A stretch of DNA of 64,000 bases from an uncultured bacterium (GCA_963732385.1 CAVSZB010000007.1:1376001-1440000), one strand, 5' to 3'; shown: positions 42,981 to 59,567, counted from the stretch's first letter. The notes: generated from the sequence alone by a model not told the origin. Translations and numbers: made by a program.

Positions 42981-44273
42981 TTAACGTCCTCCTGCGCGCG
43001 GATCGGTGATGACGCCGGTGATGGCGCTGGCCGCGGCGACGGCGGCGCTGCACAGGTAGACCTCGGATTTCGGGTTGCCCATGCGACCCTTGAAGTTGCG
43101 GTTGGTGGTGGCGAACGCCACCTCCTCGTCCCCGAGCGCCCCCTGATGGATGCCCAGACACGGCCCGCAGCCCGAGTTCATCACCACGGCGCCGGCCTTC
43201 ATGAACTCCTGCAGGTAGCCGGCCTCGAGGGCCTGGGCGTAGATCCGCCCGGAGGCCGGAAAGACCAGCATGCGCGTGCCCTGCGCGACCTTCCTGCCCT
43301 TGAGGATCCCGGCGGCGATTTCCAGATCGTCCAGGCGGCCGTTCGTGCAGCTGCCGATCACGATCTGCTGGATCGGCTTGCCGGCGACCTCGTCGACCGG
43401 CTTGACGTTGTCGACCATGTGCGGACAGGCGATCTGCGGCGCGAGCCGCGACACGTCGATCTCGACGACCTTCTCGTAGACAGCATCGGCATCCGGCAGG
43501 ACCCGCTCGATGGGCCCGGTGACGCCGGCCTCCTGGCGCAGGTAGCGCTCGGTCTCGTCGTCGGCGGGCACGATGCCGCTCGTGGCGCCGGCCTCGACGC
43601 TCATGTTGCAGACGACGAGGCGCCCGCTCGTGGACATCGCTCCCGATCGTGTCGCCGTGGAACTCGAGCACGCGGAAGTTCGCGCCCTGCGCCGTGAGCC
43701 GGCCGATCAGGTGCAGGATCAGGTCCTTCGGCCCGACGTGTTCCGGGAACTTGCCGGTGACGATGACCTTGATGGTCGGCGGCACCTCGATGTTGAGCGC
43801 GACGCCGAGCGTCCAGACCGAGGCCATCTCGGTGGCGCCGATGCCGAAGGAGAAGCGCCCAGCGCTCCGTGGCTGGTCGTGTGGCTGTCGGTGCCGACGA
43901 CCACGAAACCGGGCCGGACGTAGCCGTACTCCGGCAGGATCTGGTGGCAGATGCCGCCGCGGTCGCCGCGGATGTCGTGGAATTTGGCGATTCCGTGCTG
44001 CGCCACGAAGCCGCGGATGAGCTTGTGGTTGGTGGCGGTCTTGGGCCCCTCGGCCGGCACACGGTGATCGAAGATGATGGCGATGCGGGAGGGATCCCAG
44101 GGTTTGGGCTCGCGACCCGTACCCTGATAGATCTCCTTGAACTGGTTGATGACCAGGGCCGCGTTCTCGTGCGACATGGCGAGATCGACCTGCGGCTCCG
44201 TGATGTCAAGGGCCTTGACGACCTTCACGCCCGCCGCTTTGGCCAGGATCTTTTCGACGACTGTCATTCCCAT
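42981..44273 (-). pseudogene. Dehydratase large subunit (LeuC/HacA-like) with two compensating frameshifts (~43855, ~43643); real lesion or assembly error
   Basis: MGMTVVEKIL...GICHQ...GTDSHTTSHGALGA | FSFGIGATEMA...GPKDLIL | CNMSVEAGA, IGSCTNGR, GCGPCLG, TNRNFKGRMG, read across three ORF segments. Confidence 0.85.
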
Positions 44274-44299
44274 CGTAGCTCCTCATCACGGCCGGGGTT

Positions 44300-45507
44300 T
44301 CAGATGACTGCCTTCTGCTTGAGTTCGGCGAGCTGAGCCTCGGCGAAGCCCAGGCGGCCCAGGATCTCGGCGTTGTGCTGTCCGAGCGTCGGCGGCGGGG
44401 TGGTGACGGCGCCCGACGCGCCGTCGAACAGGGCGGTGAGGCCGAAGACCTCGATCTCGCCCAGACCTGGCACGTCCACCTTCTGCAGGACCCCTCGGTG
44501 CTCGATCTGAGGCTGGCGCAGCGCCTGCTTCAAGCTCAGGATCTCGCCGCTCGGCACGTCGCGCGCGTTCAGGGCCTCGACCCAGTGCAGTGTCGGCTTC
44601 CGGGTGAGACGCGCTTCGAGGAGCGGCGTCAGGGCCTTGCGGTTCTTCTTGCGGGTGTCGCGCTCCTGGAAGCGCGGATCGACCTTCAGCTCCGGGAGCT
44701 CGAGGACATCGCAGACCGCCTCCCACTGCTCCTGCTTGTTGGCGGCGATGTTGATGTGGCCGTCGAGCGTGCTGAAGGTGCCGCTCGGCGCCGCGGTGAA
44801 GTTGTCGTTGCCCATGACGGGCGGCTCGTGTCCGCCGATCAGGAGGTTCGCGACCACCCAGCCCATCAGCGGCATGATCGAGTCGAGGAGCGCGACATCG
44901 ATGCACTGGCCCTGCGCCGGTCCGCTCGCGGTGGAAGAGGGCGGCCATGACCGCGAACGCCGCGTTCAGCCCGCCCACGGTGTCGCAGACGGGAAAGCCG
45001 GCGCGCAGCGGCGTCAGCCGTTCGTCGCCGTTGATCGCCATCTCGCCGGAGAGCCCCTGGATGATCTGGTCGTAGGCCGGCTTGTCGGCGTCCGGGCCGG
45101 TCTGGCCGAAGCCGGAGATCCCGCAGTAGACGAGCCGGGGATTGATCTCGCGCAGGACGTCGTAGCCGAGCCCGAGCCGCTCCATGACGCCGGGCCGGAA
45201 GTTCTCGATCACGCACGTCGGCGTCCCGGACGAGACGTTTGAAGATCTCCTTGCCCTCCGGGCTCTTGGTGTTGAGGGTCACCGACTTCTTGTTGCAGTT
45301 CTGCGCCAGGAAGCTCGTCCCCATCAGCCGCTTGTTGTACTCGGGAACGATCCCGAGCTTGCGGGCCAGATCACCGTCCTTGGGGTTCTCGATCTTGATG
45401 ACCTCCGCGCCCAGCAGCGCCAGGTGGAGCGAGGCGAACGGACCGGAGAGGACGTTGGTGAGGTCAAGGACCTTGATGCCGTCGAGAATGCGCGGTTTGT
45501 CTGTCAT
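44300..45507 (-). pseudogene. Class III (CaiB/BaiF) CoA-transferase with two +1 frameshifts (~45214, ~44914); real lesion or assembly error
   Basis: LDGIKVLDLTNVLSGP, GAEVIKIE, NCNKKS | IENFRPGVMERLGLGY, ISGFGQTGP, AYDQIIQ | GQCIDVAL, PPTLGQHN. Confidence 0.85.
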
Positions 45508-45522
45508 CGCAGCACCTGTCTG

Positions 45523-46419
45523 TTAGAAGAGCGGTCCGGTCTTGTGGACCCGGCCCGGCATCTCCCGGCCGAAATGTGTGGCGACCTCGCGGGCCACGGC
45601 GATGATCGCGTCGAGATCGATCTCCTCGCGCAGGCCGCTGCGGCGGAGGGCGTGGACCAGGTCCTCGGTGGCCACGTTGCCGGCCGCTACCTTCGTGAAC
45701 GGGCAGCCGCCCAGGCCGGCGACCGAGGTTTCGAAGCTCACGACCCCCGACTCCAGCGCGGCATAGATGTTCGCCATGCCGAGTCCGTAGGTGTCGTGGA
45801 AGTGGCACGTGCAGCGGATCTCCGGCGCGAGTTCCCGGATCCTGCCGAACAGCCGCCTCACCTGCCCGGGATACGCGTGGCCGGCGGTGTCGGCGAGGCT
45901 GATGTTCGTGAGACCCGCCTCGAGATAAGCGGCGACGATGCCGAGGACCCGCTCCTCGGCCACGCGGCCCTCGAAGCCGCAGCCGAACGCGCTCTGCACC
46001 GAGACCTGGATCTTTTTGCCGGCCGCGACCGCCGCCCTGGCCGTGGCGATGATGCGGCGCTGAGCCTCCTCCGACCCCATGCCGGTGTTCTTCAGGCTGT
46101 GCGTCTCGGAGGCCGAGACCCCGAGGCAGAACATCTCCACGCCGCACGCGAGGCCGCGCTCGAGCCCCTTCTCGTTGAGCACGAGGCCCGAGAGAATCGT
46201 TCGGCCTCTCGGCTCAGCGACGAGAGTGCGGAAGAGCGCGTCCGTGTCGGCCATCTGCGGCACCTTCTCGGGGTGCACGAACGAACCGACCTGGACGATG
46301 TCCAGGCCCGCGGCGATCAGCGACCGGATCCACCCGAGCTTCTGCTCGGTCGCGACCACCTGCTTCTCGACCTGCAGGCCGTCCCGGGGACCGACTTCGT
46401 GGATGATGATCTCGGACAT
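45523..46419 (-). CDS. HMG-CoA lyase family protein
   Basis: EVGPRDGLQ, SFVHPEKVPQMAD, ISLADTAG, HFHDTYG, GLGGCPF, GNVATED. Confidence 0.9.
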   Translation of the reverse strand: MSEIIIHEVGPRDGLQVEKQVVATEQKLGWIRSLIAAGLDIVQVGSFVHPEKVPQMADTDALFRTLVAEPRGRTILSGLVLNEKGLERGLACGVEMFCLGVSASETHSLKNTGMGSEEAQRRIIATARAAVAAGKKIQVSVQSAFGCGFEGRVAEERVLGIVAAYLEAGLTNISLADTAGHAYPGQVRRLFGRIRELAPEIRCTCHFHDTYGLGMANIYAALESGVVSFETSVAGLGGCPFTKVAAGNVATEDLVHALRRSGLREEIDLDAIIAVAREVATHFGREMPGRVHKTGPLF

Positions 46420-46423
46420 TGCG

Positions 46424-47541
46424 CTACAGCTTCCTGGCGATCGCCTCGCCCATCTCCAGGGTCGTGGCGCTGCCGCCCATGTCGTACGTGCGCACGCTGC
46501 CTTCGGCGATGACCTGGGCGGTGGCCTGCTCGAGCCGGGCGCCCTTTTCGGTCTCGCCCAGCCATTCCAGCATCATCTTGCCGGCGAGGATGGTGGCGAT
46601 GGGATTCACCTTGTACTGGCCGGCGTACTTGGGCGCGCTGCCGTGGCTCGGCTCGAACACGGCGAGCTTCTCGCCGATGTTGCCGGAGCAGCCGAAGCCG
46701 AGGCCGCCCACCATCTGCGCCGCGAGGTCGCTGACGATGTCGCCGAACATGTTGGTGGCGACGAGCACGCCGTAGCTCCGGGGATTCTTGAGAAGCCACA
46801 TGCAGATGGCGTCGATGTTCGCGTCGTCCATCTGGATCCCCGGGTAGTCTTTGGCGATCCGCTTTCCGGTCTCCAGGAACAGGCCCTCGGTCGCGCGCAC
46901 CACGTTGGCCTTGTGGATCACGGTGACCTTCGGGTAGTTGAACTTCCTGGCGTACTCGAAGGCGGCACGGATGATCCGCTCGCAACCCTTGTTCGTGTTG
47001 ATCTTGCAGCTGATGGCGTAGTCGTGGCCCGGCAGGCTGGCGAAATGAGCGAACGGCTTGCTGAGCCGGCTCAGGACGCTGACGAGTTCGTCCGGGACCG
47101 GGCTGAACTCGACGCCGGCATAGAGATCCTCCGTGTTCTCGCGGAAGACCACGAGGTCGATGCCCTCCTTGTAGTTGAGAGGGTTGCCAGGATAGGCCTT
47201 GCAGGGCCGCAGGCAGGTGTAGAGGTCGAACAGCTGCCGCATGCGGACGATGGGACTGCGGTAGACCAGCCCCTTGCCCTGCAGCTCCGGGATGAGCTCG
47301 CGCTCCGCGTCCTTCACCGGCTTGGAGGTGATGGCGCCGAACAGAGCCGCGTCACTTGACCTCAGAAGCTCGACCGTGCGCTCCGGGAAGGCGTCGCCCT
47401 CCGGCACCAGAACTCCCAGCCGATGTCGCCGTGCGTGTAGGTGGCGTCGAACTTGAGGGCGTCGAGACAGATCCTGGTCGCCTCCATGACTTCCACGCCC
47501 ACGCCGTCACCCGGCAGCCATGCGATCTTGTACCTGCTCAT
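46424..47541 (-). pseudogene. Isocitrate/isopropylmalate-family decarboxylating dehydrogenase with a one-base deletion at ~47402; real lesion or assembly error
   Basis: GGAGG RBS + MSRYKIAWLPGDGVGVEV...GWEFWC | EGDAFPERT, FRENTEDLY, HKANV, NMFGDIVSD, FEPSHGSAP. Confidence 0.85.
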
Positions 47542-47586
47542 GGATCCTCCATGGGGCCGTGCCTGGGCGACCTGATCCGCCGCACC

Positions 47587-47601
47587 ATGCATTTTTAGAA
47601 T
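47587..47601. promoter_or_regulatory. Putative LysR box ATGC-N7-GAAT (T-N11-A)
   Basis: Lies in the AT-rich divergent intergenic region between the operon and lysR. A similar element (GTTC-N7-TCAT) overlaps the lysR start at 47720-47734. Confidence 0.5.
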
Positions 47602-47732
47602 GATCGAGGAGAAGCGACAATTCATCTCCCCGAGCCGATCACGGAACTTAATCCTTGTATTCAAGTGAATTATGATGCACTGTCGGCCATGATCACAAAC
47701 GATGATTTTTCAGGAACCAGTTCCAAAAAGTC

Positions 47733-48629: not shown

Positions 48630-48693
48630 GATAGATGAGCACGCGGGCGTCGGGACCGAGGCCTGAGCCAACCGTTTGCTTCCGGGGGATGGC

Positions 48694-49359
48694 ATGACCG
48701 AGACTTCGTTGGCGATCCTCGTCTGGACGGCGATTTCGATCGGGGTCACGCATACGGTGATCGGGCCTGACCACTACGTTCCGTTCATCGCGCTGGCGCG
48801 AGCGCGGGGCTGGACGGGCGGGCGGACGCTCGCGGTGACGGCGCTGTGCGGGGTGGGGCATGTGCTGTCATCGGTGGTGATCGGGGGGCTTGGCATCGGC
48901 CTGGGAACGGCGCTTGGCCGCCTCGAAGCGATCGAGAGCGCGCGGGGCGAATGGGCCAGTTGGGGGCTGATCCTGTTCGGGGTCGGGTATGGGGTCTGGG
49001 GGTTGTGGCGGGCGCGGCGGGGGCATGGGCATCGGCATCTGCCGGGAGGCGGGCATCTGCACGACCACGAAGCACGGTCGGTCACGTTCTGGACGCTGTT
49101 CATCGTGTTCGTGCTGGGGCCTTGCGAGCCGCTCATTCCGCTGCTGATGTTTCCGGCGGCGAAGCATGACTGGGCGGGGGTCTGGGTGGTGACGGGGGCG
49201 TTCGGGGTCGCCACGATCGGCGCCATGTGCGCGCTGGTGCTGGCGGGGAGACGGGGGCTGGCGCGGGTGCGGCTGGCGGGGCTGGAGCGCTATGCGCATG
49301 CGCTCGCGGGCGGCATCATCGCGATGTCGGGGGCGGCGATCCGGCTGTTCGGGATCTGA
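48694..49359 (+). CDS. Nickel/cobalt transporter (NicO/UreH-like)
   Basis: HTVIGPDH motif, His-rich loop GHGHRHLPGGGHLHDH, VLGPCEPL, about 6 TM helices; adjacent to hydrogenase genes. Confidence 0.75.
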   Translation: MTETSLAILVWTAISIGVTHTVIGPDHYVPFIALARARGWTGGRTLAVTALCGVGHVLSSVVIGGLGIGLGTALGRLEAIESARGEWASWGLILFGVGYGVWGLWRARRGHGHRHLPGGGHLHDHEARSVTFWTLFIVFVLGPCEPLIPLLMFPAAKHDWAGVWVVTGAFGVATIGAMCALVLAGRRGLARVRLAGLERYAHALAGGIIAMSGAAIRLFGI

Positions 49360-49372
49360 GGGACAGCGCAGG

Positions 49373-49861
49373 TCAGACGTCGGCAGCCAGCAGCTCGCGC
49401 ACTGCGACCAGGATCTCGTCGCGCAGAGCGGGGTAGCGCGCCTCGAGCTCCTCGGTCATCCGCTCGCTGAAGGTCAGGTTGTCGACGATCTCCACGGCGA
49501 AAATATGGATCTCCGCATCGGGCGGCAGGCGCAGGCCGAGACGACGGCCGAGCTCCAGCGCGGTGGCGAAGTTCGTATCGTGGACGTTGGACAGGTTCAT
49601 CGTCGGGCGCAGGGCGGCGGCGGTGAACCGGTGCCAGGCGCCGGGCAGCGCATCGCGGGTCTTGACCGAGTCGAGGCAGACGAGGCGGTCGTGGCCCTGC
49701 AGGACGTCGAGCAGGTTGAGACCGCCGACGGAGCATTCCTCCAGCCAGGCCAGGGCGGGGCGGTCGCCGAGCGCGAGGCGCAGGTCGCGCGCCAGGCGCA
49801 CGCCGACGGCGTCGTCGGTCAGGATCGGGTTGCCGAGGCCCACGACCAGGGTCGTCATCAT
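49373..49861 (-). CDS. Hydrogenase maturation protease
   Basis: VGLGNPILTDDAVG, GGLNLLD, SNVHD. Confidence 0.92.
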   Translation of the reverse strand: MMTTLVVGLGNPILTDDAVGVRLARDLRLALGDRPALAWLEECSVGGLNLLDVLQGHDRLVCLDSVKTRDALPGAWHRFTAAALRPTMNLSNVHDTNFATALELGRRLGLRLPPDAEIHIFAVEIVDNLTFSERMTEELEARYPALRDEILVAVRELLAADV

Positions 49862-49937
49862 CGGGCGTCTCCGCGGGGATTTCGGGGCGCCGGCCGAGGT
49901 CCGATCGGGACGACGCCTCCCGCTGCCGGGCGATCGC

Positions 49938-51404
49938 TCAGCAGTTCCGCTTGATCGTCTGCACCAGTTCCCCGCCGCGGATCAGTCGCACCTCGAGCGG
50001 CATCTGGCCCGGGAGGCTGTGCGTGGCGCAGGAGTAGCACGGATCGAAGGCGCGGAAGCCCATCTCGATCATGTTCAGGATGCCCTCATTGGCCGGCTGG
50101 CCAGGCTTGATCAGCGCTTTGGCGATCTTGCGGGTCACCATGTGGATGGGGGCGTTGTTGTTCGTGGTGCCGACGATCAGGTTGGCGCTCGTGCAGATGC
50201 CGTTCTCGTCGCAGGTGTAGTGGTGCGTCAGGGTGCCGCGCATCGCCTCGACGATGCCAACCCCCTCCCCCGTGATCTTCTGCGGCACGACGCGGTAGCG
50301 GGCGCCGGTGATCTCGGGATCGGCGCAGTGGCGCTGCAGCATCTCCGCGTTCTGCACCATCTCCACGAGGCGGGCCCAGTGATTCGCCAGCAGCGCCCGG
50401 CAGGGGTGGCCGCCGAGCGTGGTGAACATCTCCTCGAACGCGATCTGCGCCTGTGGCGTGGCCATCCGGTCGGCCACGTTGAGGCGGGCGAGCGGCGTGG
50501 CGCAGTAGAGGCTGGAGTCCTCCCCCTCCACGAATCCCTTCCAGCCGCGCTGCTTCAGGTAGGGGAACTTGAGGTAGCTCCACGGCTCCACGTGCTCGGC
50601 CACGTATTCGTGGTACTCCTCGGGACGGTAGCGGCAGATCTCATGGCCGTGGAAGTCGACCACGCGCACCTGACCATGGTAGAAGTTGGGGGCGTTGTTC
50701 TCGTCGACCAGCCCCATGTTGTGCACGTCGAGCGTGTACGGCCCGTTGACGATCAGGTCCACGTAGCCGGGGTTGCCGAGCACCACGTCGCGGAACAGCT
50801 GCAGCGAGAACTGCGTGAAGTCGTACAGCTCGGCCACGAGGGGCCGGATCCGCTCCAGCTCCTCCGGCGTGCACCCCTTCGACACGCCGCCCGGCAGGCA
50901 CCACACCAGGTGCGTGCTGCGCCCGCCCAGGATCGTCTGGATCTCCTGCGCCATGGCGCGCGCCCTGATGACGGCGCCGCCGATCTCCAGGCCGACCTTC
51001 GCCACCACGCCGAGGATGTTGCGCGTGGCGGGATCGCTGTCGGGACCGCAGACGAAGTCGGGGGCGGCCAGCGCGTAGAAGTGGGCGATGTGGCTGTGGA
51101 TGTAATGCGCGTGGTAGTACATGTCGCGCAGCTTGTGCGCCAGCGGGGGGCACTCGCCGCCGAAGCAGCCGTCAACCGCCTTGGCGCTCGCCATGTGGTG
51201 ACTGGCGGGGCAGACGCCGCAGATCCGCGTCACGATGCGCGGCAGCTCCTCGATCGGCCGCCCGACGACGAAGCGTTCGAACCCGCGCAGTTCGGGGATC
51301 TGGAAATAGGTGTCGCGCACCGAGCCGTCGTCGTTGAGGAAGATCGAGATCTTGCCGTGCCCCTCGAGGCGCGTGATCGGATCGATGTGGATCGTCCGCG
51401 TCAT
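49938..51404 (-). CDS. mvhA: NiFe hydrogenase large subunit, Mvh (group 3c) type
   Basis: IDPITRLEGHGK, ELRGFE, L1 RICGVCP, VEAMRGTLTHHY, L2 RAFDPCYSCATH plus cleavable tail. Confidence 0.93.
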   Translation of the reverse strand: MTRTIHIDPITRLEGHGKISIFLNDDGSVRDTYFQIPELRGFERFVVGRPIEELPRIVTRICGVCPASHHMASAKAVDGCFGGECPPLAHKLRDMYYHAHYIHSHIAHFYALAAPDFVCGPDSDPATRNILGVVAKVGLEIGGAVIRARAMAQEIQTILGGRSTHLVWCLPGGVSKGCTPEELERIRPLVAELYDFTQFSLQLFRDVVLGNPGYVDLIVNGPYTLDVHNMGLVDENNAPNFYHGQVRVVDFHGHEICRYRPEEYHEYVAEHVEPWSYLKFPYLKQRGWKGFVEGEDSSLYCATPLARLNVADRMATPQAQIAFEEMFTTLGGHPCRALLANHWARLVEMVQNAEMLQRHCADPEITGARYRVVPQKITGEGVGIVEAMRGTLTHHYTCDENGICTSANLIVGTTNNNAPIHMVTRKIAKALIKPGQPANEGILNMIEMGFRAFDPCYSCATHSLPGQMPLEVRLIRGGELVQTIKRNC

Positions 51405-52363
51405 GTAAGACTCCTCTGCAACAGCGATCCCGGCAGACCGAAGCGGTAGGCGTAGCCCATGATGTCGGGCACGTCGGCGAGGATCCGGTCGATTTCGGCA
51501 GGGTCCCTGCTGTCGATGATCGAGGCGATCGCGCTGATCAGCTTGGCCCCCTGGTCGACGACGTTGGGCGCCGGGCCGTAGCAGCCGCGGCACGGCATGT
51601 TGCTGTTCGGGCAGCGCACGCCGCAGCCGGAACGCGTGGCCGAGCCGGCGCAGACGATCCCCTGTTCGAGCAGGCAGCGCTCCGGATCCTGGATGATCTG
51701 CCACGGACGATGGAACTTCGCCACCTTCTTCTCTTCCTTCTTCCGCTGGCAGTCGTCGCAGACATTGCGCTCGGACGCGCCAACCACCGACCCCCGCGGC
51801 GGCAGCTGGCCGGTCACGACCGCGGTCAGCACCTCGCGCACGCGATCGGGGTGCGGCGGGCAGCCCGGCACGGTGTAATCGACCTCCACCACGTCGCCCA
51901 GCCGGTAGACGCGGCGGTACATGGTCGGGATCTCCAGCCCGCCGCATTCCACCCGGCTCTCCGGCAGCGGCACCGTGCGGTTGCCCGGCTCGATGGAGGG
52001 GTTGTTCAGGTAGGCGCGCTCGAAGATCTCCTCGCGCGTGAACTGGTTGGCCAGGCCCGGAATGCCGCCGAGGTGCGCGCACGAGCCGAACGCCACCAGC
52101 AGCTTCGCCTTGCGCCGCAGCAACTTCGCCACGTGCTCGTTCTCGCTGTTGCGCACGGCGCCGTTGAAGATCGCCAGATCGAGCTCGCCGTCGGCCATGG
52201 CCTCGAGATCGTGGTACTTGCCGTCGACGGCGATCGGCCAGAAGCGGATGTCGGCCGCCGCGGCCACGTCGAGGATGAACTCGTTGGTGTCGAGCACCGC
52301 GACGTCGCAACCGCCGCACGCGGCGCCCCAGTAGAGCGCGATCTGCAGCTTACGATCGGGCAT
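51401..52363 (-). CDS. mvhG: NiFe hydrogenase small subunit
   Basis: ACGGCD, FGSCAHLGGIPGL, PGCPP, CDDC, CLLEQG, TRSGCG, PCRGCYG. Confidence 0.92.
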   Translation of the reverse strand: MPDRKLQIALYWGAACGGCDVAVLDTNEFILDVAAAADIRFWPIAVDGKYHDLEAMADGELDLAIFNGAVRNSENEHVAKLLRRKAKLLVAFGSCAHLGGIPGLANQFTREEIFERAYLNNPSIEPGNRTVPLPESRVECGGLEIPTMYRRVYRLGDVVEVDYTVPGCPPHPDRVREVLTAVVTGQLPPRGSVVGASERNVCDDCQRKKEEKKVAKFHRPWQIIQDPERCLLEQGIVCAGSATRSGCGVRCPNSNMPCRGCYGPAPNVVDQGAKLISAIASIIDSRDPAEIDRILADVPDIMGYAYRFGLPGSLLQRSLT

Positions 52364-52366
52364 CTC

Positions 52367-52801
52367 TCACCTCGTGGCCTGGTCCTGGGTGAGGGCCGTC
52401 TTCACCATGCACGGCCCGAGCGCGCGGATCTTTTCGGTCATGTCGTTGACCAAGTCGGCGAACCGCTTCCCCTCGCTGGCGCTGACCCACTCGAGGCGGA
52501 CCCGTTCCGGCTCGATGCCGTAGTCGGCCAGCAGGCGCTTGAGCAGGGGATAGCGCCGCATCGTCTTGTAGTTGCCCTCGCTGTAGTGGCAGTCGCCGGG
52601 ATGGCAGCCGCAGATGAGCACCCCGTCGGCCCCCTGCTGCAGCGCCTTCAGCACGAAGGTGGGGTCGATGCGCGCGGAACACATCACGCGGATCACCCGC
52701 ACGTTGGCGGCGTACTTGATGCGACTGGTGCCGGCGAGATCGGCCCCCGTATAGGAGCACCAGTTGCAGAGCAACCCCACGATCTTGGGCTCGAAGGCCA
52801 T
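52367..52801 (-). CDS. mvhD: Hydrogenase [2Fe-2S] subunit
   Basis: LCNWCSYTGADLAG, RVMCSARID, GCHPGDCHY, WVSASEG; TGATG overlap with hdrA. Confidence 0.95.
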   Translation of the reverse strand: MAFEPKIVGLLCNWCSYTGADLAGTSRIKYAANVRVIRVMCSARIDPTFVLKALQQGADGVLICGCHPGDCHYSEGNYKTMRRYPLLKRLLADYGIEPERVRLEWVSASEGKRFADLVNDMTEKIRALGPCMVKTALTQDQATR

Positions 52802-54522
52802 CAGAGCACCCCCTCGATCTGGGCGAATATCTGCTCGTCGGTGAAATGTCGCGCCTTGATCGCGCCGGACGGACACGCCGCCACGCAGGTCCCGCACGCC
52901 TTGCAGAGCGCGCTGATGACGTGGCTCCGCTTCTTCCCTTCGTCGTATTCGATCGCCGCGTAGGGGCACAGCTCGTTGCACATCCGGCAGCCGGAGCAGT
53001 GCTCCTCGTCCACCTCGGCGTAGACGGCATCGACCTCGATCCGACCGATCGCGATCTTCTGCAGGATGCGCGCCGCCGCGGCGCGGGCCTGGGCCACGGA
53101 GTCGGTGATGTCCTTGGGCGCCTGGCAGGCGCCGGCGATGAACACCCCGTCGGTGGTGGTGGCGACCGGATCGAGCTTCGGATGGCTCTCGATGAACCAG
53201 CCGTCGCGGTCCTGGCTGATGTTCACCAGGCGGGCCACCCGGCCGGCGTCCGGACGCGCCTCCATGCCGACCATGAGCACGACCATGTCGGCCGGGATGT
53301 CCACCTCCTCACCGCTCAGTTCGTCGTTCACCCGGATCAGCATCCCGCAGTCGTACTTCGGACCGGCCTGCCGGATCTCCGGCGACGTGCCCTTGCGGTA
53401 CATCATGAAGATGGTCTTGATCTCCGCCGAGCGGCGATAGAAGTCCTCGCAACCCTTCCCGAAGGCGTGCATGTCGATGTAGAGGTCGTAGACGAACGCG
53501 TCGGGAATGGCCGACTTCACCTCGTGCGCGTACTTCAGCGCCGTCATGCAGCAGACGCGCGAGCAGTAGGGATGGAATTCCTCGCTCCGGCTGCCGATGC
53601 AGTGGATGATCGCCATGTACTGCGGCGGCTTGCCCTGGTCGGTGAGGATCCGTCCCTCGCGCAGCATGTGCTCGAACTCGAACGAGGTGATCACGTTCGG
53701 GAACCAGCCGTAGCCGTAGGCCTTCACGCGTGCGGCGTCGAACGGCTCGTAGCCGGTGCACACCACGACGCTGCCCACTTTCGCCTCGAGCGTTTCGGCG
53801 TCGTCGTCCGCGCCGGTCCGGATCCGCGCCGTGAAATTGCCGATGTACCCGGTGAGCTCCTCCACCTGCGCGTTCAGCAGCAGGCGTACGCGCGGGTCCT
53901 CCTTCACCCGGGTGATCCGCTCCAGCAGCATGTCACGCCCGGAATCGAGATAGGGCGCCGTCAGGTCCACGCGCGCCACGTTGCCGCCCAGATGGTCGCT
54001 CGCCTCCACGAGGAAGACAGGCTGTTCGGCGCCGGCCAGCTCGAGCGCCACCGTCATGCCGGCCATGCCGCCGCCGATCACGAGCGTGGCGGGATTCATG
54101 TCCACGTAGCGCTTCTCGAGCGGCTCGTGGAGCGCGACCCGGCGCACGGCCGCCCGGGTCAGCGCCGCGGCCTTGTCCGTGGCGGCGCGGTGATCCTCGT
54201 GCACCCACGAGCACTGCTCGCGGATGTTGGCCATCTCGAGGAAATACGGGTTGAGCCCCGCCCCGCCGAGGGCGGTGCGGAAAGTCGGCTCGTGCATGCG
54301 CGGGCTGCAGGCCGCCACCACCACCCGGTCGAGCCCGAGCTCGCGGATGTCCTGCTGGATCATCTCCTGGCCCGGATTGGAGCACATGTACTTGTAGGAG
54401 CGGGCCACCACCACGCCCGGCAGCGCTTCCGCGGACCGCGCGACTTCGTCGCACTCGACAACTTTCGCGATGTTCGTGCCGCAATTGCAGACATAGACGC
54501 CGATCCTGCGCTCGTCCGTCAT
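52801..54522 (-). CDS. hdrA: HdrA-like flavoprotein (N-terminal Cys cluster, FAD domain, C-terminal 2x[4Fe-4S])
   Basis: VYVCNCGTNI, YMCS, AACSP, NIREQCSW, IGGGMAG, HCIGSR, YCSRVCCM, CSGCRMCNELCP, CKACGTCVAACP. Confidence 0.9.
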   Translation of the reverse strand: MTDERRIGVYVCNCGTNIAKVVECDEVARSAEALPGVVVARSYKYMCSNPGQEMIQQDIRELGLDRVVVAACSPRMHEPTFRTALGGAGLNPYFLEMANIREQCSWVHEDHRAATDKAAALTRAAVRRVALHEPLEKRYVDMNPATLVIGGGMAGMTVALELAGAEQPVFLVEASDHLGGNVARVDLTAPYLDSGRDMLLERITRVKEDPRVRLLLNAQVEELTGYIGNFTARIRTGADDDAETLEAKVGSVVVCTGYEPFDAARVKAYGYGWFPNVITSFEFEHMLREGRILTDQGKPPQYMAIIHCIGSRSEEFHPYCSRVCCMTALKYAHEVKSAIPDAFVYDLYIDMHAFGKGCEDFYRRSAEIKTIFMMYRKGTSPEIRQAGPKYDCGMLIRVNDELSGEEVDIPADMVVLMVGMEARPDAGRVARLVNISQDRDGWFIESHPKLDPVATTTDGVFIAGACQAPKDITDSVAQARAAAARILQKIAIGRIEVDAVYAEVDEEHCSGCRMCNELCPYAAIEYDEGKKRSHVISALCKACGTCVAACPSGAIKARHFTDEQIFAQIEGVL

Positions 54523-54535
54523 GCTTCGCCTCCCG

Positions 54536-55678
54536 TCAGGCGACCTGCGCCTGGGTCGCGGTCCGCGGCTCGCGGTCGCGGACCGTGAACGCCTCCGCCT
54601 GCAGCTCGGAGAAGTACATGGCCAGTGGCCGATAGGCCAGATGGGCCCACTTGCTGAACGGCACTTCGAGCACCAGCATCGGCACCACGCCCATCATGTG
54701 GGCGAGGTAGAGGATGTTGGCCGCGTGTCCCTGCCCCGTGCGGTGCAGGACGTGCTGCGCCACGCCGGTCGCCGCCACGTAAAGGAGCATCACCAGGAAG
54801 ATCCAGTCCGTCTCGTGCGAATGCCGGTAGTGCGTTTCGGTCTTGCGCAGCCGCCCGCGCAGCGCCCAGATCCCGGTGCCCAGCAGGCCGGCCGAGGCGA
54901 GGTAGCCGAAGACATGCACGCCCCAGTTGATCTCGGGGCCGTGCTGCATCTGGTGCAGGAACAGCATGATCAGCACGAGCATCGTCAGGTAGCTGAGCAT
55001 CAGCACCAGGTGGACGGCCCAGGGCCGCTTCCGGTCGCACTCGCGGTAGCGCTTCTGGGTGAGGAAGTGCAGCGGCAGCAGCCACGCCTTGCGCAGGTAG
55101 GCCGACAGCGGCACGCGCAGCGGCTGCCGTCCCATGGTGTACCACCACATGCGGGCGCAGTTGACGAGCAACAGAGTCCCCAGCACGCCGGCCATGATCC
55201 AGTCGAAGGTGTGCACGAACGAGCTGGCCAGGAACGCCCGCGGTCCGTCGTACTGCCGGATGTCCCCGTGCGCGGTGCCCCAGGCCCAGAAGCCGAGGCC
55301 GGTCAGCAGGGCCACCACCACGATCGCCGCGGCCTCGAGCCGCCACGAACGGTAGAACAGGCGCGAAAGGCCGGTGAAGTCGTACTGTGCGGTGAGCCAG
55401 CGGCGCATGCTCATCATCGTCTCGCCCGGCTCCGCATCGCGCGGGCACTCGTCCGAACACTCCCCGCAGTAGTAGCAGAGCCACGGCTCGAGATTGCCGC
55501 GCAACTTGTCCTCCAGCCCCATCTGGAGGAACCGCATCGATTTGCGGGGGAACAGGAACGGCTCCTTCGAGAAGGGACAGGTGGCGCTGCAGTTGCCGCA
55601 GTGGTAGCACTTCAGCACGTCCTGCGCGCCGTAGTGCTCCAGTTCTCCGACCAGCCTCGGATTCGCCATCACCACCAT
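54536..55678 (-). CDS. QmoC-like protein (HdrC-type 2x[4Fe-4S] + di-heme b membrane domain)
   Basis: CYHCGNCSATCP, WLCYYCGECSDECPR, about 6 TM helices with His residues, PFSKWAHLAYRP. Confidence 0.8.
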   Translation of the reverse strand: MVVMANPRLVGELEHYGAQDVLKCYHCGNCSATCPFSKEPFLFPRKSMRFLQMGLEDKLRGNLEPWLCYYCGECSDECPRDAEPGETMMSMRRWLTAQYDFTGLSRLFYRSWRLEAAAIVVVALLTGLGFWAWGTAHGDIRQYDGPRAFLASSFVHTFDWIMAGVLGTLLLVNCARMWWYTMGRQPLRVPLSAYLRKAWLLPLHFLTQKRYRECDRKRPWAVHLVLMLSYLTMLVLIMLFLHQMQHGPEINWGVHVFGYLASAGLLGTGIWALRGRLRKTETHYRHSHETDWIFLVMLLYVAATGVAQHVLHRTGQGHAANILYLAHMMGVVPMLVLEVPFSKWAHLAYRPLAMYFSELQAEAFTVRDREPRTATQAQVA

Positions 55679-55695
55679 GCCGCGTCTCCTTCGGT

Positions 55696-57522
55696 TCAGA
55701 CGGCCGCGCCGGCGCGCGCCCGGGCGCGCGCGACGATCTCATCGAGCGAGACATTGCCGCGACTGTCGCGCCCCTTCCCGCTGAGGATGCTGCGCAGGAC
55801 ACGAGCCGCCACGGCCGAGGCCTGCGCCACGGTGTCGGGAATGTCCTTCGGGCCCTGGCAGACGCCCGCCACATAGACGCCCCCGCGCTCCGTGCCCGTG
55901 GGATCGGTGTTGTAGTCCGCCTCGCTGAACCAGCCGTCCGGGTCGCGCGGGATGCCGAGGCGTGCCGCCAGCGCGTCCGTGCCGGGCGCCGGCTCGAGAC
56001 CCACGGCGAGGATGACCATGTCCACGGGGAATTCGAGCAGTTTCTCGCTGAGGATATCCTCCCCGCGCACGATCAGGCGCCCCTCCCGCGCGGAGACCTT
56101 GGCGCTGCGGCCGCGCACCACGAACACCCCCTCGTCTTTGATCCGCTCGAAGAACGCCTCGTAGCCCTTCCCATAGGCCCGCATGTCGATGTAGTACTCG
56201 TAGCAGGCCGCGTCGGGCAGTTTCTCCTTCACGAGATGGGCGAATTTCAGCGAGTACATGCAGCAGACGCGCGAGCAGTAGGCGTTGTAGTTCACGTCGC
56301 GCGAACCGACGCAGTGGATGATCGCGATGCTCTGCGGGCGCGGACCCTCCTGCTCGAACACCCATTCGTCCTGCTTCGTGCGCCGGTTGTGCCGCTGCGT
56401 CTTCATCACCACCGCCCCACCCGTGGGGCCGGAGGCGTTGGTGAGCCGCTCGAATTCGAGCGCCGTCAGCACGTTGGGGTGCACGCCGTAGCCGTAGCGC
56501 TCGATGCGCCCGGCATCGAAGGTCTCATAGCCGGTGGCCAGCACGATGTTGCCCACCTCGAGTTCCACCACCTGGTCCTGCTCGTCGAAGTGGATCGCCT
56601 CCTTGGCGCACTTCTTCAGGCAGGCGCCGCAGCGCTGGCCGCCACTCTGCACATAGAGACAGTTCGCGGCGTCGATGACGTAGGCGTTCGGCACCGCCTG
56701 CGGGAACGCCATGTAGATCGCCTTGCGCGTCGTGATGCCGTGGTCGAATTCGCTCGGCACCGAAACCGGGCAGACCTCCGCGCAGGCGTGACACGCCACG
56801 CAGGCGTCGGCGGCCACGCGCTTGGCGTGCTGCAGGACGCGGACGCGATAGTCGCCGGGCCGGCCCGTCACGTCCTGCACCTCGGCCATCATCAGCAGTT
56901 CGATCTGCGGATGCTGACCGACAGCCACCATTTTCGGCGTGAGAATGCAGGCGGCGCAGTCGAGCGTGGGGAAAGTCTTGTCGAACATCGCCATGTGGCC
57001 GCCGATGGTCGCCGAGCGCTCGATCAGGTACACCTTCTTGCCGGCGTTGGCGATCTCGAGCGCGGCCTGGATGCCGGCCACCCCGGCGCCGATCACGACC
57101 GTTTCCGAACGGACCGTGGTCACATCGGGCACCGCCGCCAGACCGTACGGGACGCCGAGCACCGCGCAGGTGAGGACCGCCTTCGCCCGCTCGGTGGCAT
57201 TGCGCAGCCCCGCGGCGTGTTCGCGGAAGGAGGCGAGTTTGACCTCCGCCGCATTCCCGCCGGCGTCGGCCATGGCGCGCGTGAAGGCCGGTTTGAAGAA
57301 GCCGGGCGAATCGCCGGCGATGACGAGCCTGGTCAGTCCGGCTTTGCGGATCCGCGCGGTGAGCGCCTCGGGAACGAGCGTCGGCATCTCGCCCAGGTCC
57401 TCGACCAGCGTGACTTCGGGGAGGTTCGCGGCATGGCCGGCGACCGCCTTGAAGTCCACCGCGTCGGCGATGCCGGTTCCCCGCCGGCAGAGGTAAACTC
57501 CAACCCTCGCCACGGCGTCCAT
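55696..57522 (-). CDS. hdrA: Second HdrA-like flavoprotein (inserted ferredoxin domain, degenerate N-terminal cluster)
   Basis: IGAGVAG, FDKTFPTLDCAACILTPKM, CVACHACAEVCP, CGACLKKC, HCVGSRD, YCSRVCCMYSLK, GPKDIPDTV; GAGG RBS before ATG 57522. Confidence 0.88.
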   Translation of the reverse strand: MDAVARVGVYLCRRGTGIADAVDFKAVAGHAANLPEVTLVEDLGEMPTLVPEALTARIRKAGLTRLVIAGDSPGFFKPAFTRAMADAGGNAAEVKLASFREHAAGLRNATERAKAVLTCAVLGVPYGLAAVPDVTTVRSETVVIGAGVAGIQAALEIANAGKKVYLIERSATIGGHMAMFDKTFPTLDCAACILTPKMVAVGQHPQIELLMMAEVQDVTGRPGDYRVRVLQHAKRVAADACVACHACAEVCPVSVPSEFDHGITTRKAIYMAFPQAVPNAYVIDAANCLYVQSGGQRCGACLKKCAKEAIHFDEQDQVVELEVGNIVLATGYETFDAGRIERYGYGVHPNVLTALEFERLTNASGPTGGAVVMKTQRHNRRTKQDEWVFEQEGPRPQSIAIIHCVGSRDVNYNAYCSRVCCMYSLKFAHLVKEKLPDAACYEYYIDMRAYGKGYEAFFERIKDEGVFVVRGRSAKVSAREGRLIVRGEDILSEKLLEFPVDMVILAVGLEPAPGTDALAARLGIPRDPDGWFSEADYNTDPTGTERGGVYVAGVCQGPKDIPDTVAQASAVAARVLRSILSGKGRDSRGNVSLDEIVARARARAGAAV

Positions 57523-57566: not shown

Positions 57567-57584
57567 CTGTGACGCGATTCACAA
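57567..57584. promoter_or_regulatory. Rex- or CRP/FNR-type operator cTGTGAcgcgaTTCACAA
   Basis: Perfect TGTGA-N6-TCACA at 57568-57583, 45 bp upstream of the operon start; matches 12 of 14 fixed positions of TTGTGAA-N4-TTCACAA. Confidence 0.65.
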
Positions 57585-57668: not shown

Positions 57669-59567
57669 TTAGTCCACTGCCGGCAGGACCAGCGTGAAGG
57701 TCGTGCCGCGCTGCTCGGCGCTCTCGAAGGAGATGGCGCCGCCATGCCGTTCGACAATGTCCTTCACGATGACCAGTCCGAGGCCGGTGCCGGAAATCTC
57801 CAGCCGCTTCGCGTTGTCGGCGCGGAAGAATTCGGTGAACAGACTGGCCCGGGCCGACGCGGGAATCCCGATGCCGGTGTCGCTCACGTCGATCCGCGCG
57901 CCGCCGGCGGTCGCGCGGGCGAGCGTCACGGTGACCCTGCCGCCGGACGGGGTGTACTTGATGGCGTTCGAAACGAGGTTCTCCAGCGCCTGCTCCAGCA
58001 ACTCGGCATCGCCCAGCGGCGAAGGGGCGTCGGGAGCCGACTGGATGACGAACTGCAAGCCGCGCTCGGCCGCCTTCTCCTGGAACGTGCGCCCCACTTT
58101 CGCGGCTAGCGCGGCCAGGTCCACCCGCTCGCGCACGAACTCACGCCGCTCCCCCTGGTTCGCGGCGAGCACCATCAGCTCGTTCACCATCTGCCCCAGC
58201 GACCCGGCGCGCCGCTCGACGCGTCGCAGGTACTCGCGCTGGTTTTCGCTGATTTCGCCGATGTAGCCGTCCCGCACCACGGTCAGCATGCTCGACATCG
58301 CCGCCAGCGGCGCGCGCAGATTGTGGGCGATGCGATACGTGAACCGCTCCCGCTCGCGCCCCGCCTCCTCCACGGCCTCGTAGGCGCGCGCGTTTTCGAG
58401 CGCGATCGCCACGAGCTCGGCCGCCAGTCCCATGAAATCCACGTCGTCGCGGCGGAAACGCTCCGGCTCGCGGCAGTAGGCGCCCAGGATACCGATCACC
58501 CGCTCGCCGGTCCTGAGCGGCACGAACAGCACGGACTGGAGGAGCGTCGCCGCGAATCCCTCGCCAAGTTGCGCCAGCTCCGCCTGCGTGACCTGGCCCG
58601 CCGCGAACGGCTCCCCGGCCAGGATGCGCTGGTTGAGCGGACTGAGCGCCGTCTCCACTGCGCCCGCCGCCTCCAGCCCGGGCGGCAGCCCATGCGAGGA
58701 GGCGAGACGCAGGGTCCGGCCGTCCTCCGCCAGCAGCTTCACGGAGCAGCCCTGCACGTCCATCACCTTCGCGAGCTCCGAACAGACCAGCGCCAGCACG
58801 GTTTCGAGCCGACGGCTCCGCACGATCGTCTGCATGATCGTCTGCAGGCTCTGCAGCTTGCGGTTGAGGCCGAGCACCGCTTCGGTCAGATCGGCCAGGT
58901 GCGCGATGCGCAGGCGGATCAGCTCCATGATGCTCGTCGTGGCGAACGAGGTGATCAGCACGGTGGCGGCGAAGAAGCCCCAGGTGAAGAGCGAAGGGAG
59001 CGTGCGCCCGGTCAGGCTCACCGGCTGGTCGCGGTACAGCAGGGGGTGGCCCGGCAGCCAGCCCTGGCTCTCGGCCAGCGTCAGCAGACCCATGCCCAGC
59101 GCCGCCGCGCAGGCGAACCAGTGCGCGGTGCCGTGGCGCAGGAGGATCGACGCGAAGATCACGTGGAAGATGAAGAAGAAAACGAAGGGACTGCCCCCGC
59201 CCCCCGTGAAATGGACGAGCAGGAACATCGCGCCGAAGTCGCAGACCACCTGCCACCGCGTGAACCGGCGCAGCGTCTCCTCGCTCTGCATTTCCGGCTC
59301 GTGGACGAACCGACGATGCCAGCGCAGAAAGAAGAAATTGTAGCCGAGCACCAGCAGCGCCGTGGCCAGCAGCGGCACCGCCGGCAGCCCGACGCCGAGC
59401 AGCCGGCCGAGCGCGAGCCCGGCGACCACGCCCGGCGGCACCCACCACCGCACCCGCACGAACCACAGCGAACGGTCCTTGAGCTCGTGCAGCAGCAGCC
59501 GACGACGCGCCCGCCGGTCCGAGGCGACCCCGTCCGTCTCCCGCTCCAGTGGGCCGTGCGTCGTCAT
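57669..59567 (-). CDS. Membrane sensor histidine kinase with GAF domain
   Basis: 5-6 TM helices, GAF, H-box IAHNLRAPL, NLVSNAIKYT, DTGIGI, GTGLGL. Start uncertain. Confidence 0.92.
   Translation of the reverse strand: MTTHGPLERETDGVASDRRARRRLLLHELKDRSLWFVRVRWWVPPGVVAGLALGRLLGVGLPAVPLLATALLVLGYNFFFLRWHRRFVHEPEMQSEETLRRFTRWQVVCDFGAMFLLVHFTGGGGSPFVFFFIFHVIFASILLRHGTAHWFACAAALGMGLLTLAESQGWLPGHPLLYRDQPVSLTGRTLPSLFTWGFFAATVLITSFATTSIMELIRLRIAHLADLTEAVLGLNRKLQSLQTIMQTIVRSRRLETVLALVCSELAKVMDVQGCSVKLLAEDGRTLRLASSHGLPPGLEAAGAVETALSPLNQRILAGEPFAAGQVTQAELAQLGEGFAATLLQSVLFVPLRTGERVIGILGAYCREPERFRRDDVDFMGLAAELVAIALENARAYEAVEEAGRERERFTYRIAHNLRAPLAAMSSMLTVVRDGYIGEISENQREYLRRVERRAGSLGQMVNELMVLAANQGERREFVRERVDLAALAAKVGRTFQEKAAERGLQFVIQSAPDAPSPLGDAELLEQALENLVSNAIKYTPSGGRVTVTLARATAGGARIDVSDTGIGIPASARASLFTEFFRADNAKRLEISGTGLGLVIVKDIVERHGGAISFESAEQRGTTFTLVLPAVD

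Follow-up and report, generated by a model that had tools for sequence, protein, structure and literature searches.

A bacterial operon with two complementary HdrA subunits and a QmoC-like membrane subunit, predicted to link H2 to menaquinone and ferredoxin

Flavin bifurcation by HdrA is understood in detail for systems whose high-potential acceptor is a disulfide. The MvhAGD-HdrABC complex of methanogens (5odc, 8rvu, 9sw2-6) contains a symmetric HdrA homodimer with four domains per chain and two electron paths, and its HdrB subunit reduces the heterodisulfide CoM-S-S-CoB. According to cryo-electron microscopy of the methanogen complexes, the arm of one HdrA, comprising its N- and C-terminal domains and MvhD, serves FAD' (flavin adenine dinucleotide), Cys202'/205', HA4' and the inserted domain with HA5'/6' of the other HdrA (PMC13580544, PMC12350162). 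For Qmo, the idea that HdrA-type flavins couple to the quinone pool dates back to at least 2012 (PMC3333476), and a demonstration of such coupling was not found in the open-access papers searched. Here we describe a seven-gene operon, hdrA1-qmoC-like-hdrA2-mvhD-mvhG-mvhA-protease, in a 64,000-nucleotide (nt) stretch of DNA from an uncultured bacterium (GCA_963732385.1 CAVSZB010000007.1:1376001-1440000; hereafter the window, to which all positions refer). On balance, and by analogy with the methanogen enzyme, we favour the reading that it encodes one membrane-anchored complex that would split H2 electrons between menaquinone (MK) and ferredoxin (Fd) according to 2 H2 + MK + 2 Fd-ox -> MKH2 + 2 Fd-red.

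This kind of gene cluster is not new: its parts and the hypothesis are in print for Ca. Methanoglobus, and tandem-HdrA complementarity is in print for anaerobic methanotrophic archaea (ANME). A scheme in which electrons flow or are bifurcated among H2, menaquinone, and ferredoxin has been put forward for the Mvh-Qmo-Hdr cluster of Ca. Methanoglobus nevadensis and Ca. M. hypatiae; this cluster is highly expressed in M. hypatiae and was termed 'unique' in those archaeal methanogens (10.1101/2022.12.01.518715; 10.1101/2023.09.08.556235 = PMC10945360). As in the operon described here, MvhAGD, two HdrA proteins, and an HdrC-QmoC fusion are encoded in one cluster of a host without HdrB and sulfate-reduction genes (aprA and dsrA were checked here). 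In contrast, the archaeal gene order is qmoC-hdrA-hdrA-mvhD-mvhG-mvhA, whereas here the qmoC-like gene lies between the two hdrA genes and the arrangement is bacterial and widespread. The passages on the Methanoglobus cluster make no mention of complementary HdrA loss, donor swaps, or Rex control, and the match concerns the parts only. For the tandem HdrA pairs of ANME (HdrA 5/6 and 12/13), a complementary pattern like that of HdrA1/HdrA2 was proposed, but host and partners differ and a QmoC-type subunit is missing, the term 'qmo' being absent from the text of that paper (PMC9012536).

Type I QmoABC likewise consists of two HdrA-like flavoproteins and an HdrC-cytochrome b fusion, and equivalents of H223, H327, and H346 of the membrane subunit are common to both systems. 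However, QmoA has about 424 amino acids (aa) and no inserted ferredoxin domain, QmoB carries a fused MvhD, and the partner is AprAB, whereas here MvhD is separate and HdrA1, with 608 aa, contains the insert (PMC3333476). Type II Qmo is described as HdrA-like, with a role unknown outside sulfate reducers (PMC10504309). The flavoproteins of the operon are likewise nearer to HdrA than to type I QmoAB in tree and identities; neither the passages on type II Qmo in that paper nor its supplementary spreadsheet names a hydrogenase link. With MvhAGD-HdrABC the operon shares [NiFe] subunits with metal motifs, MvhD, the HdrA flavin fold, the HdrC domain, and all cofactor ligands of one bifurcation path; here, however, a heterodimer with divided domains and one path is predicted, no HdrB was found, and HdrC is fused to a membrane domain. 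The operon is neither MvhAGD-HdrABC nor type I QmoABC. FixABCX works in a similar manner: as a membrane-linked system it bifurcates at a flavin, taking electrons from a mid-potential donor and delivering them to quinone and to ferredoxin or flavodoxin. It uses Etf-type proteins instead of HdrA and NADH as donor, and the variant of our operon with Flx-like genes (see below) would run the same overall reaction. Among the open-access papers searched, no title dealt with a bacterial version of the complex, and no biochemistry of it was found. The earlier note on this DNA, made from the sequence alone, had remarked that the combination was not known as a characterised complex; this agrees with our search, but the novelty it implied does not hold in view of Ca. 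Methanoglobus. Within the literature reached, we add the bacterial breadth, the donor swaps, the Rex-like site, and the observation that the HdrA losses match a trans mechanism exactly, and the surprise is limited because the concept has already been published as a hypothesis.

The operon and its predicted operator comprise the following features.

55696..57522, minus strand: HdrA1, 608 aa; FAD fold, CxxC pair C189/C192, inserted 2[4Fe-4S] domain, HA4 cluster; predicted bifurcating subunit
54536..55678, minus strand: HdrC-QmoC-like membrane subunit, 380 aa; 2[4Fe-4S] HdrC domain and about six predicted membrane helices with His 156/223/255/327/346
52801..54522, minus strand: HdrA2, 573 aa; N-terminal HA3 Cys, FAD fold, HA4 cluster, C-terminal 2[4Fe-4S] domain; predicted mobile-arm subunit
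52367..52801, minus strand: MvhD [2Fe-2S] adaptor, 144 aa; PF02662
51401..52363, minus strand: MvhG, [NiFe] hydrogenase small subunit, 320 aa; PF01058, VhuG; Cys conserved
49938..51404, minus strand: MvhA, [NiFe] hydrogenase large subunit, 488 aa; PF00374, VhuA
49373..49861, minus strand: hydrogenase maturation protease, 162 aa; TIGR00072 above cut-off
57567..57584, minus strand: Rex-like operator, palindrome TGTGA-N6-TCACA, 62 nt upstream of the hdrA1 start; predicted site

The seven genes span 57522-49373 on the minus strand with gaps of 17, 13, -1, 3, -4, and 76 nt from hdrA1 through the protease gene, and all frames are unbroken. Together with the family matches of the proteins (HdrA2/HdrA, QmoC, FlpD/VhuD, VhuG, VhuA, and hydrogenase protease), this bears out the tight operon reported in the earlier note. 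A sigma-70 scan found no promoter, and no terminator was found inside or after the operon. Five RNA runs from two studies each cover 0.07-0.22 of the operon, and across 51450-57502 run X1 contains eight long contigs that match at about 95-97%, of which two bridge gene junctions; as coverage also reaches the flanking genes and DNA carry-over is possible, these reads were not counted as expression evidence. MvhD keeps C12, C15, C41, C66, H67, D70, and C71 in 66/66 copies, H67 and D70 being the equivalents of His68/Asp71 in methanogen MvhD. MvhA has the metal-binding pairs C62/C65 and C456/C459 and a C-terminal tail after H462, with the motifs present in 58/58 copies. Its best NCBIfam match is VhuA (353 bits, cut-off 800), far ahead of the sulfhydrogenase and Frh models, and its MvhD/HdrA context would fit [NiFe] hydrogenase group 3c.

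The two HdrA proteins have opposite losses. HdrA1 can be aligned with solved HdrA (5odc, 8rvu) in its flavin core and inserted ferredoxin domain, with C189/C192 matched to Cys202/205 (Cys197 numbering in 5odc); relative to the same structures, most N-terminal cluster ligands are lost and the chain ends short of the C-terminal ferredoxin domain. The reverse holds for HdrA2, in which the mobile-arm clusters are kept, whereas the CxxC pair and the inserted ferredoxin domain are gone. Among the full-length copies that passed an identity and coverage filter (71 HdrA1, 69 HdrA2), the CxxC pair, eight inserted-domain Cys, and four HA4 Cys of HdrA1 are invariant in 71/71, while HdrA2 keeps C12, C14, C47, C72, and eight C-terminal Cys in 69/69 and C104 in 68/69. 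Both proteins retain the FAD glycines, the HA4 ligands, and a Glu/Lys pair, which we take to be flavin-adjacent. In the CxxC region, 24/36 columns are invariant in HdrA1 versus 6/36 in HdrA2, and the HdrA2 branch of the core tree described below is longer than that of HdrA1. Judged by their residues, HdrA1 and HdrA2 together hold every flavin and Fe-S element that one bifurcation path needs. Since the arm acts in trans in the methanogen structures, the losses would leave exactly one complete path, with the HdrA2 arm serving the HdrA1 flavin. By this analogy, they fit one lopsided, predicted HdrA1-HdrA2 pair with a single bifurcation path. The predicted structure of HdrA1 (pLDDT, a predicted score for the local distance difference test, 85; below 50 in the CxxC loop, 178-189) contributed nothing decisive. 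Cys119 of HdrA1, which is not a canonical cluster ligand, is invariant in 71/71, and residues 370-390 form a conserved beta-hairpin insert with an invariant Trp387; both are possibly interface elements.

In a midpoint-rooted tree of HdrA cores (46 rows, flagged for long branches), HdrA1 and HdrA2 each form one clade, and both clades group with the full-length HdrA of hdrA-mvhDGA operons (100/96), apart from canonical QmoA/QmoB; the sister grouping of HdrA1 and HdrA2 is weak (88/65). Core identities are 30-36% to QmoA/QmoB versus 53-58% between HdrA1 and full-length Mvh-linked HdrA. The simple reading is that the pair arose by duplication and reciprocal loss. At six loci (L048, L061, L075, L083, L111, and L117), a second operon with full-length hdrA followed by mvhD-mvhG-mvhA directly adjoins the first, and the full-length HdrA proteins of these operons are the nearest full-length tree relatives of HdrA1/HdrA2.

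The membrane subunit has QmoC as its best NCBIfam match, and its structure was predicted confidently (pLDDT 90). Residues 5-100 match HdrC (Z 11.5, root-mean-square deviation (rmsd) 2.1, 93 aligned; sequence E 1e-12 to 7bkb_C), and the membrane part folds like EtfD (Z 11.0, rmsd 5.1, 229 aligned) and NarI (Z 8.8, rmsd 5.4, 179 aligned). Eight Cys and His 156, 223, 255, 327, and 346 are invariant in 79/79 copies; H223, H327, and H346 stay invariant once canonical QmoC of relatives is added. From the order of the helices we infer that H223/H346 would bind a cytoplasmic-side haem and that H327 with H156 or H255 would bind an outer haem. The subunit is predicted to bind one or two haems, the outer site being non-canonical.

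Mapping these parts onto the methanogen Mvh-Hdr structures suggests the following course of electrons. H2 would be oxidised by MvhAG, and electrons would pass through the HdrA2 mobile arm (C-terminal clusters and MvhD) in trans, past the CxxC pair of HdrA1, to the HdrA1 FAD. From there, the high-potential electron would travel via HA4, the HdrC domain, and haem b to menaquinone, and the low-potential electron via the HdrA2 HA3 shuttle and the inserted ferredoxin domain of HdrA1 to ferredoxin. No bifurcation is expected at the FAD of HdrA2 itself, as HdrA1 lacks an arm that could serve it. Terminal reductases would then take up the quinol, and Rnf or biosynthesis the reduced ferredoxin. For the energetics, the ferredoxin potential was taken as -420 or -500 mV. 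The computed values for 2 H2 + MK + 2 Fd are -19 to -3 kJ at 10 Pa H2 and -7 to +8 kJ at 1 Pa, i.e., the uptake reaction is exergonic down to about 1-10 Pa H2; the other inputs, MK -75 mV and a membrane potential of 150 mV, are from PMC3333476. An outer haem would let the membrane potential contribute about -29 kJ more to uptake. Uptake is favoured unless H2 is very low and the quinol reacts on the inner side.

A species-level genome scan confirmed 211/291 pattern matches, and the best 80 loci (53-93% identical) were examined; three of them stem from the relatives G001, G008, and G009, and one genome accounts for two. The arrangement is well conserved: the order hdrA1-qmoC-hdrA2-mvhD-mvhG-mvhA is intact in 62/80 loci, which argues for more than chance, and the loci carry 12 phylum labels, mostly Actinomycetota (26) and Acidobacteriota (21), with 13 unlabelled. 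Among the others, one lacks a separately called mvhD and nine are cut by contig ends. The hdrA1-qmoC-hdrA2 core is unchanged in eight variants with other donors: in six loci (L099, L103, L106, L107, L109, L110), mvhD and three Flx-like genes, all placed upstream, take the place of mvhGA, and two (L088, L113) have an Fdh-like set with MvhD and an Fe-S gene downstream, in L088 also with a molybdopterin subunit. Such donor swaps would be expected if MvhD is the mid-potential input. L113 also has a formate transporter gene between hdrA2 and mvhD. In the host phylum, 26/155 genomes match at E <= 1e-110 in a patchy pattern, a figure that includes a second, related clade; a protein search gave 3033 clusters at E <= 1e-60 among 7999 scored, which may likewise include related clades. 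A second QmoC-like clade, about 40% or 32% identical, occurs at L029-L034 (G038, G043, G048, G053), where it is accompanied by mvhD plus a further pair of HdrA-like genes (433/650 aa or 904/649 aa), with no mvhGA within the stretch examined. Canonical qmoABC-type genes are present at L035-L037, L039, and L040 (G016, G022, G025, G017, and G006), within the host's own family; two of their QmoC were scanned and both score above cut-off. For co-occurrence, we sampled 50 genomes from the 80 loci, chosen among Mvh-type carriers, in which kin are not independent counts: aprA is present in three of them and a menaquinone marker in 40 (MqnA/D in 36, MenB above cut-off in four); MqnC was found in none of the 14 genomes that lack MqnA/D. 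In a UbiA search of 12 genomes, all 14 controls matched as well.

The host genome (G000; 3.82 Mb, 95.8% complete) has nearest named relatives from which we infer an affiliation with Krumholzibacteriota. The earlier note had seen no hdrB and no aprAB/sat in the window, and the genome search extends this: HdrB was not found in G000 (best TIGR03288 match 21.8 bits), and aprA and dsrA were found neither there nor in G001, G008, G009, and G048. A sat-family gene (ATP sulfurylase) does lie elsewhere in G000 (G000:C3:132831-133460), without aprA or dsrA, and probably serves assimilation or sulfate activation. The four CCG matches of G000 all fall in two long multidomain open reading frames (ORFs), whose sequences look EtfD/EMO-like and GlcF/LdhH-like and which are in their own operon. 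MvhA is the only [NiFe] large subunit and HdrA1/HdrA2 the only HdrA pair found in the genome, and HypD is encoded elsewhere in it. Futalosine-pathway menaquinone genes (MqnA/D and MqnC) are present, as are Rnf, a small ferredoxin, a nuo cluster (complex I), an alternative complex III (ACIII)-like cluster, a COX1-family oxidase, two group A6 [FeFe] hydrogenases, a dimethyl sulfoxide (DMSO)-reductase type II enzyme, an octahaem reductase-like protein, and many multihaem proteins. The menaquinone genes, terminal reductases, and Rnf indicate that the cell has quinone, quinol sinks, and ferredoxin users. G000 further encodes an ORF with 42 CxxCH motifs (C7:21188-24310) and a gene cluster (C7:1248073-1257508) for proteins with 19, 13, and 11 haems and for HybA/HybB-like partners; both suggest extracellular electron transfer.

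Upstream of hdrA1 lies a palindrome that deviates from the Rex consensus at 2/14 specified positions (PMC2883068). Its exact core, TGTGA-N6-TCACA, occurs four times in G000 versus 0.14 expected; three of the four sites are upstream of hydrogenase operons: one before hdrA1, one before an [FeFe] operon, and one in the interval that separates rex from the second [FeFe] operon, 29 nt away from rex. No gene was called at the fourth. A sister species has a one-mismatch site at the same distance from hdrA1. Sites with at most three mismatches to a degenerate consensus occur in 11/69 related upstream regions (resampled mean 1.1, maximum 4). In the window-only test with one mismatch allowed, 45/100 shuffles did as well, which is not significant. 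According to abstracts, Rex leaves DNA at high NADH. Rex control is likely in the host lineage, as judged from the predicted sites, and not general across the family. At high NADH, Rex would open the operon along with the H2-evolving [FeFe] enzymes, so that the complex may recapture the cell's own H2. CRP/FNR as binder of the palindrome is disfavoured, as no HTH_Crp_2 match reaches cut-off in G000. A sensor kinase gene (PilS-like membrane domain, GAF, HisKA, HATPase; 57669-59567, minus strand) lies, with the same orientation, 146 nt upstream; it is found upstream in L042, L043, L045, L046, and L120 (60-94%) and nearby in several more loci, and may be a second regulator.

The earlier note had proposed H2 bifurcation to ferredoxin and (mena)quinone. 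Anatomy, HdrC domain, NarI/EtfD-like fold, invariant His, and menaquinone genes fit this proposal, while activity, direction, and quinone binding stay predicted. Several observations weigh against it. HdrA2 retains the FAD glycines, Glu284, Lys330, and HA4 and may therefore carry electrons. The membrane subunit scores 173 bits against the QmoC model NF038018, below the cut-off of 300, whereas canonical QmoC of relatives reach 392 and 403 bits; the label 'Qmo-like' of the earlier note applies only loosely to this subunit, and the flavoproteins group with full-length Mvh-linked HdrA, not with canonical QmoA/QmoB. The Z scores to EtfD and NarI are moderate and within the range common for helical proteins, and Foldseek returned no match for the membrane-subunit model at E <= 0.001. 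A membrane subunit lacking haem sites would have spoken against the proposal; the five His are invariant, yet H223+10, which we take to be the NarI-type position of the second outer-haem ligand, is Met in 72/79 copies and Leu in 7/79. The outer haem varies among NarI-family proteins, and EtfD is without it (10.64898/2026.08.18.745454). MqnA/D, MqnC, and MenB above cut-off were not found in 10/50 carriers, of unstated completeness, nor in G048 (97% complete), whose membrane subunit is without H156. The earlier note would also have counted a co-regulated hdrBC or aprAB partner elsewhere as contrary evidence; none was found in G000, yet hdrB-like genes, none above cut-off, occur elsewhere in 39/50 carriers, next to the three with aprA. 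The marker-less carriers and the hdrB-like genes weigh in part against an obligate menaquinone link. Finally, the Rex-like site is confined to those 11/69 upstream regions, and co-control with H2-evolving enzymes fits the reverse direction equally.

The reverse direction would mean that the same complex confurcates reduced ferredoxin and menaquinol to 2 H2 in vivo and so re-oxidises the quinone pool without an outside acceptor during fermentative or syntrophic growth. We regard this as unlikely, although it accommodates the Rex-like site common to the operon and both group A6 NADH-dependent [FeFe] hydrogenase operons, with Rex leaving DNA at high NADH, and the ability of G000 to fill the quinone pool by complex I and an EtfAB/EtfD-like set. 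It would also yield about -8 kJ at 1 Pa H2 and Fd -500 mV, provided that quinol oxidation takes place at the cytoplasmic face. With an outer haem, however, the membrane potential opposes it by about 29 kJ, so that the reaction stays endergonic down to 0.1 Pa and only comes close to neutral at 0.01 Pa; the His residues predicted to lie on the outer side (H156, H255, and H327) do not vary in 79/79 copies, and the characterised Mvh-Hdr complexes take up H2. That the acceptor is not menaquinone seems quite unlikely. In that case the HdrC domain would dock an HdrB/CCG-type disulfide reductase from elsewhere or another membrane carrier, the membrane part being mainly an anchor. The marker-less carriers and G048, the two CCG multidomain proteins of G000, and the hdrB-like genes, which also occur in the flanks of 7/80 loci, point this way. 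But no hdrB-like gene was found in G000, G008, G048, and 11/50 carriers, and in G001 and G009 hdrBC adjoin their own full-length 665-aa HdrA. Moreover, six of the seven flank cases have their own extra HdrA in the locus (the seventh, L058, ends before), the resemblance of the G000 CCG proteins lies with EtfD/EMO and GlcF/LdhH types, and five invariant membrane His are hard to account for in a mere anchor.

A plain, non-bifurcating H2:menaquinone oxidoreductase, with the HdrA pair acting as a wire only, would explain why no polyferredoxin (MvhB) or other low-potential partner gene is seen in the operon, and ferredoxin reduction is deduced from the parts. Yet the low-potential exit would then be dispensable, whereas the inserted-domain Cys, the HA3 ligands, and the CxxC pair are kept without exception in the 71, 69, and 71 copies, respectively, each on the subunit that the trans mechanism requires, and we judge this explanation improbable. 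Hardly credible is a QmoABC of dissimilatory sulfur metabolism feeding adenosine 5'-phosphosulfate (APS) reductase. The NCBIfam assignment of the membrane subunit, the sat-family gene of G000, and the canonical qmoABC of same-family members speak for it, but HdrA1/HdrA2 lie outside the QmoA/QmoB clade, and we rejected a sulfate-reduction role on the absence of aprA and dsrA from G000, which holds for the four other genomes searched, and the presence of aprA in only 3/50 carriers.

Beyond the operon, the leuC-like, CoA-transferase-like, and isopropylmalate-dehydrogenase-like genes at 42981-47664 (minus strand), names that we assign by presumed resemblance, appear split across frames, probably by assembly indel errors that leave the operon itself unaffected. 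A gene for a 227-aa His-rich membrane protein (48676-49359, plus strand) converges on the protease gene; the protein has a weak DsbD_2 match and a motif that we assume to resemble nickel transporters, and it is kept in G001 and G008 only.

The preferred reading, uptake of H2 with bifurcation to menaquinone and ferredoxin, can be extended to a bolder version that we hold tentatively and consider rather doubtful as a whole. A widespread bacterial family of heterodimers of half-site HdrA, into which different donors plug (H2, NADH, probably formate), would bifurcate to menaquinone via an outer haem, the membrane potential would help ferredoxin reduction at trace H2 (down to about 0.01-0.1 Pa), and Rex would control recycling of [FeFe]-made H2. 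If true, this would be a quinone-coupled HdrA bifurcation, which we did not find characterised in the open-access papers searched, and a direct model for the unresolved question of Qmo bifurcation. Donor, flavins, and membrane subunit are encoded in one 8 kb unit and thus could be assayed without an unknown third partner, and the asymmetry of HdrA1 and HdrA2 is a natural test of the trans-acting mobile-arm model. Given the spread of the operon, many hydrogenases beside hdrA in metagenome-assembled genomes, currently taken to be 'heterodisulfide-linked', may supply quinone respiration and produce reduced ferredoxin instead.

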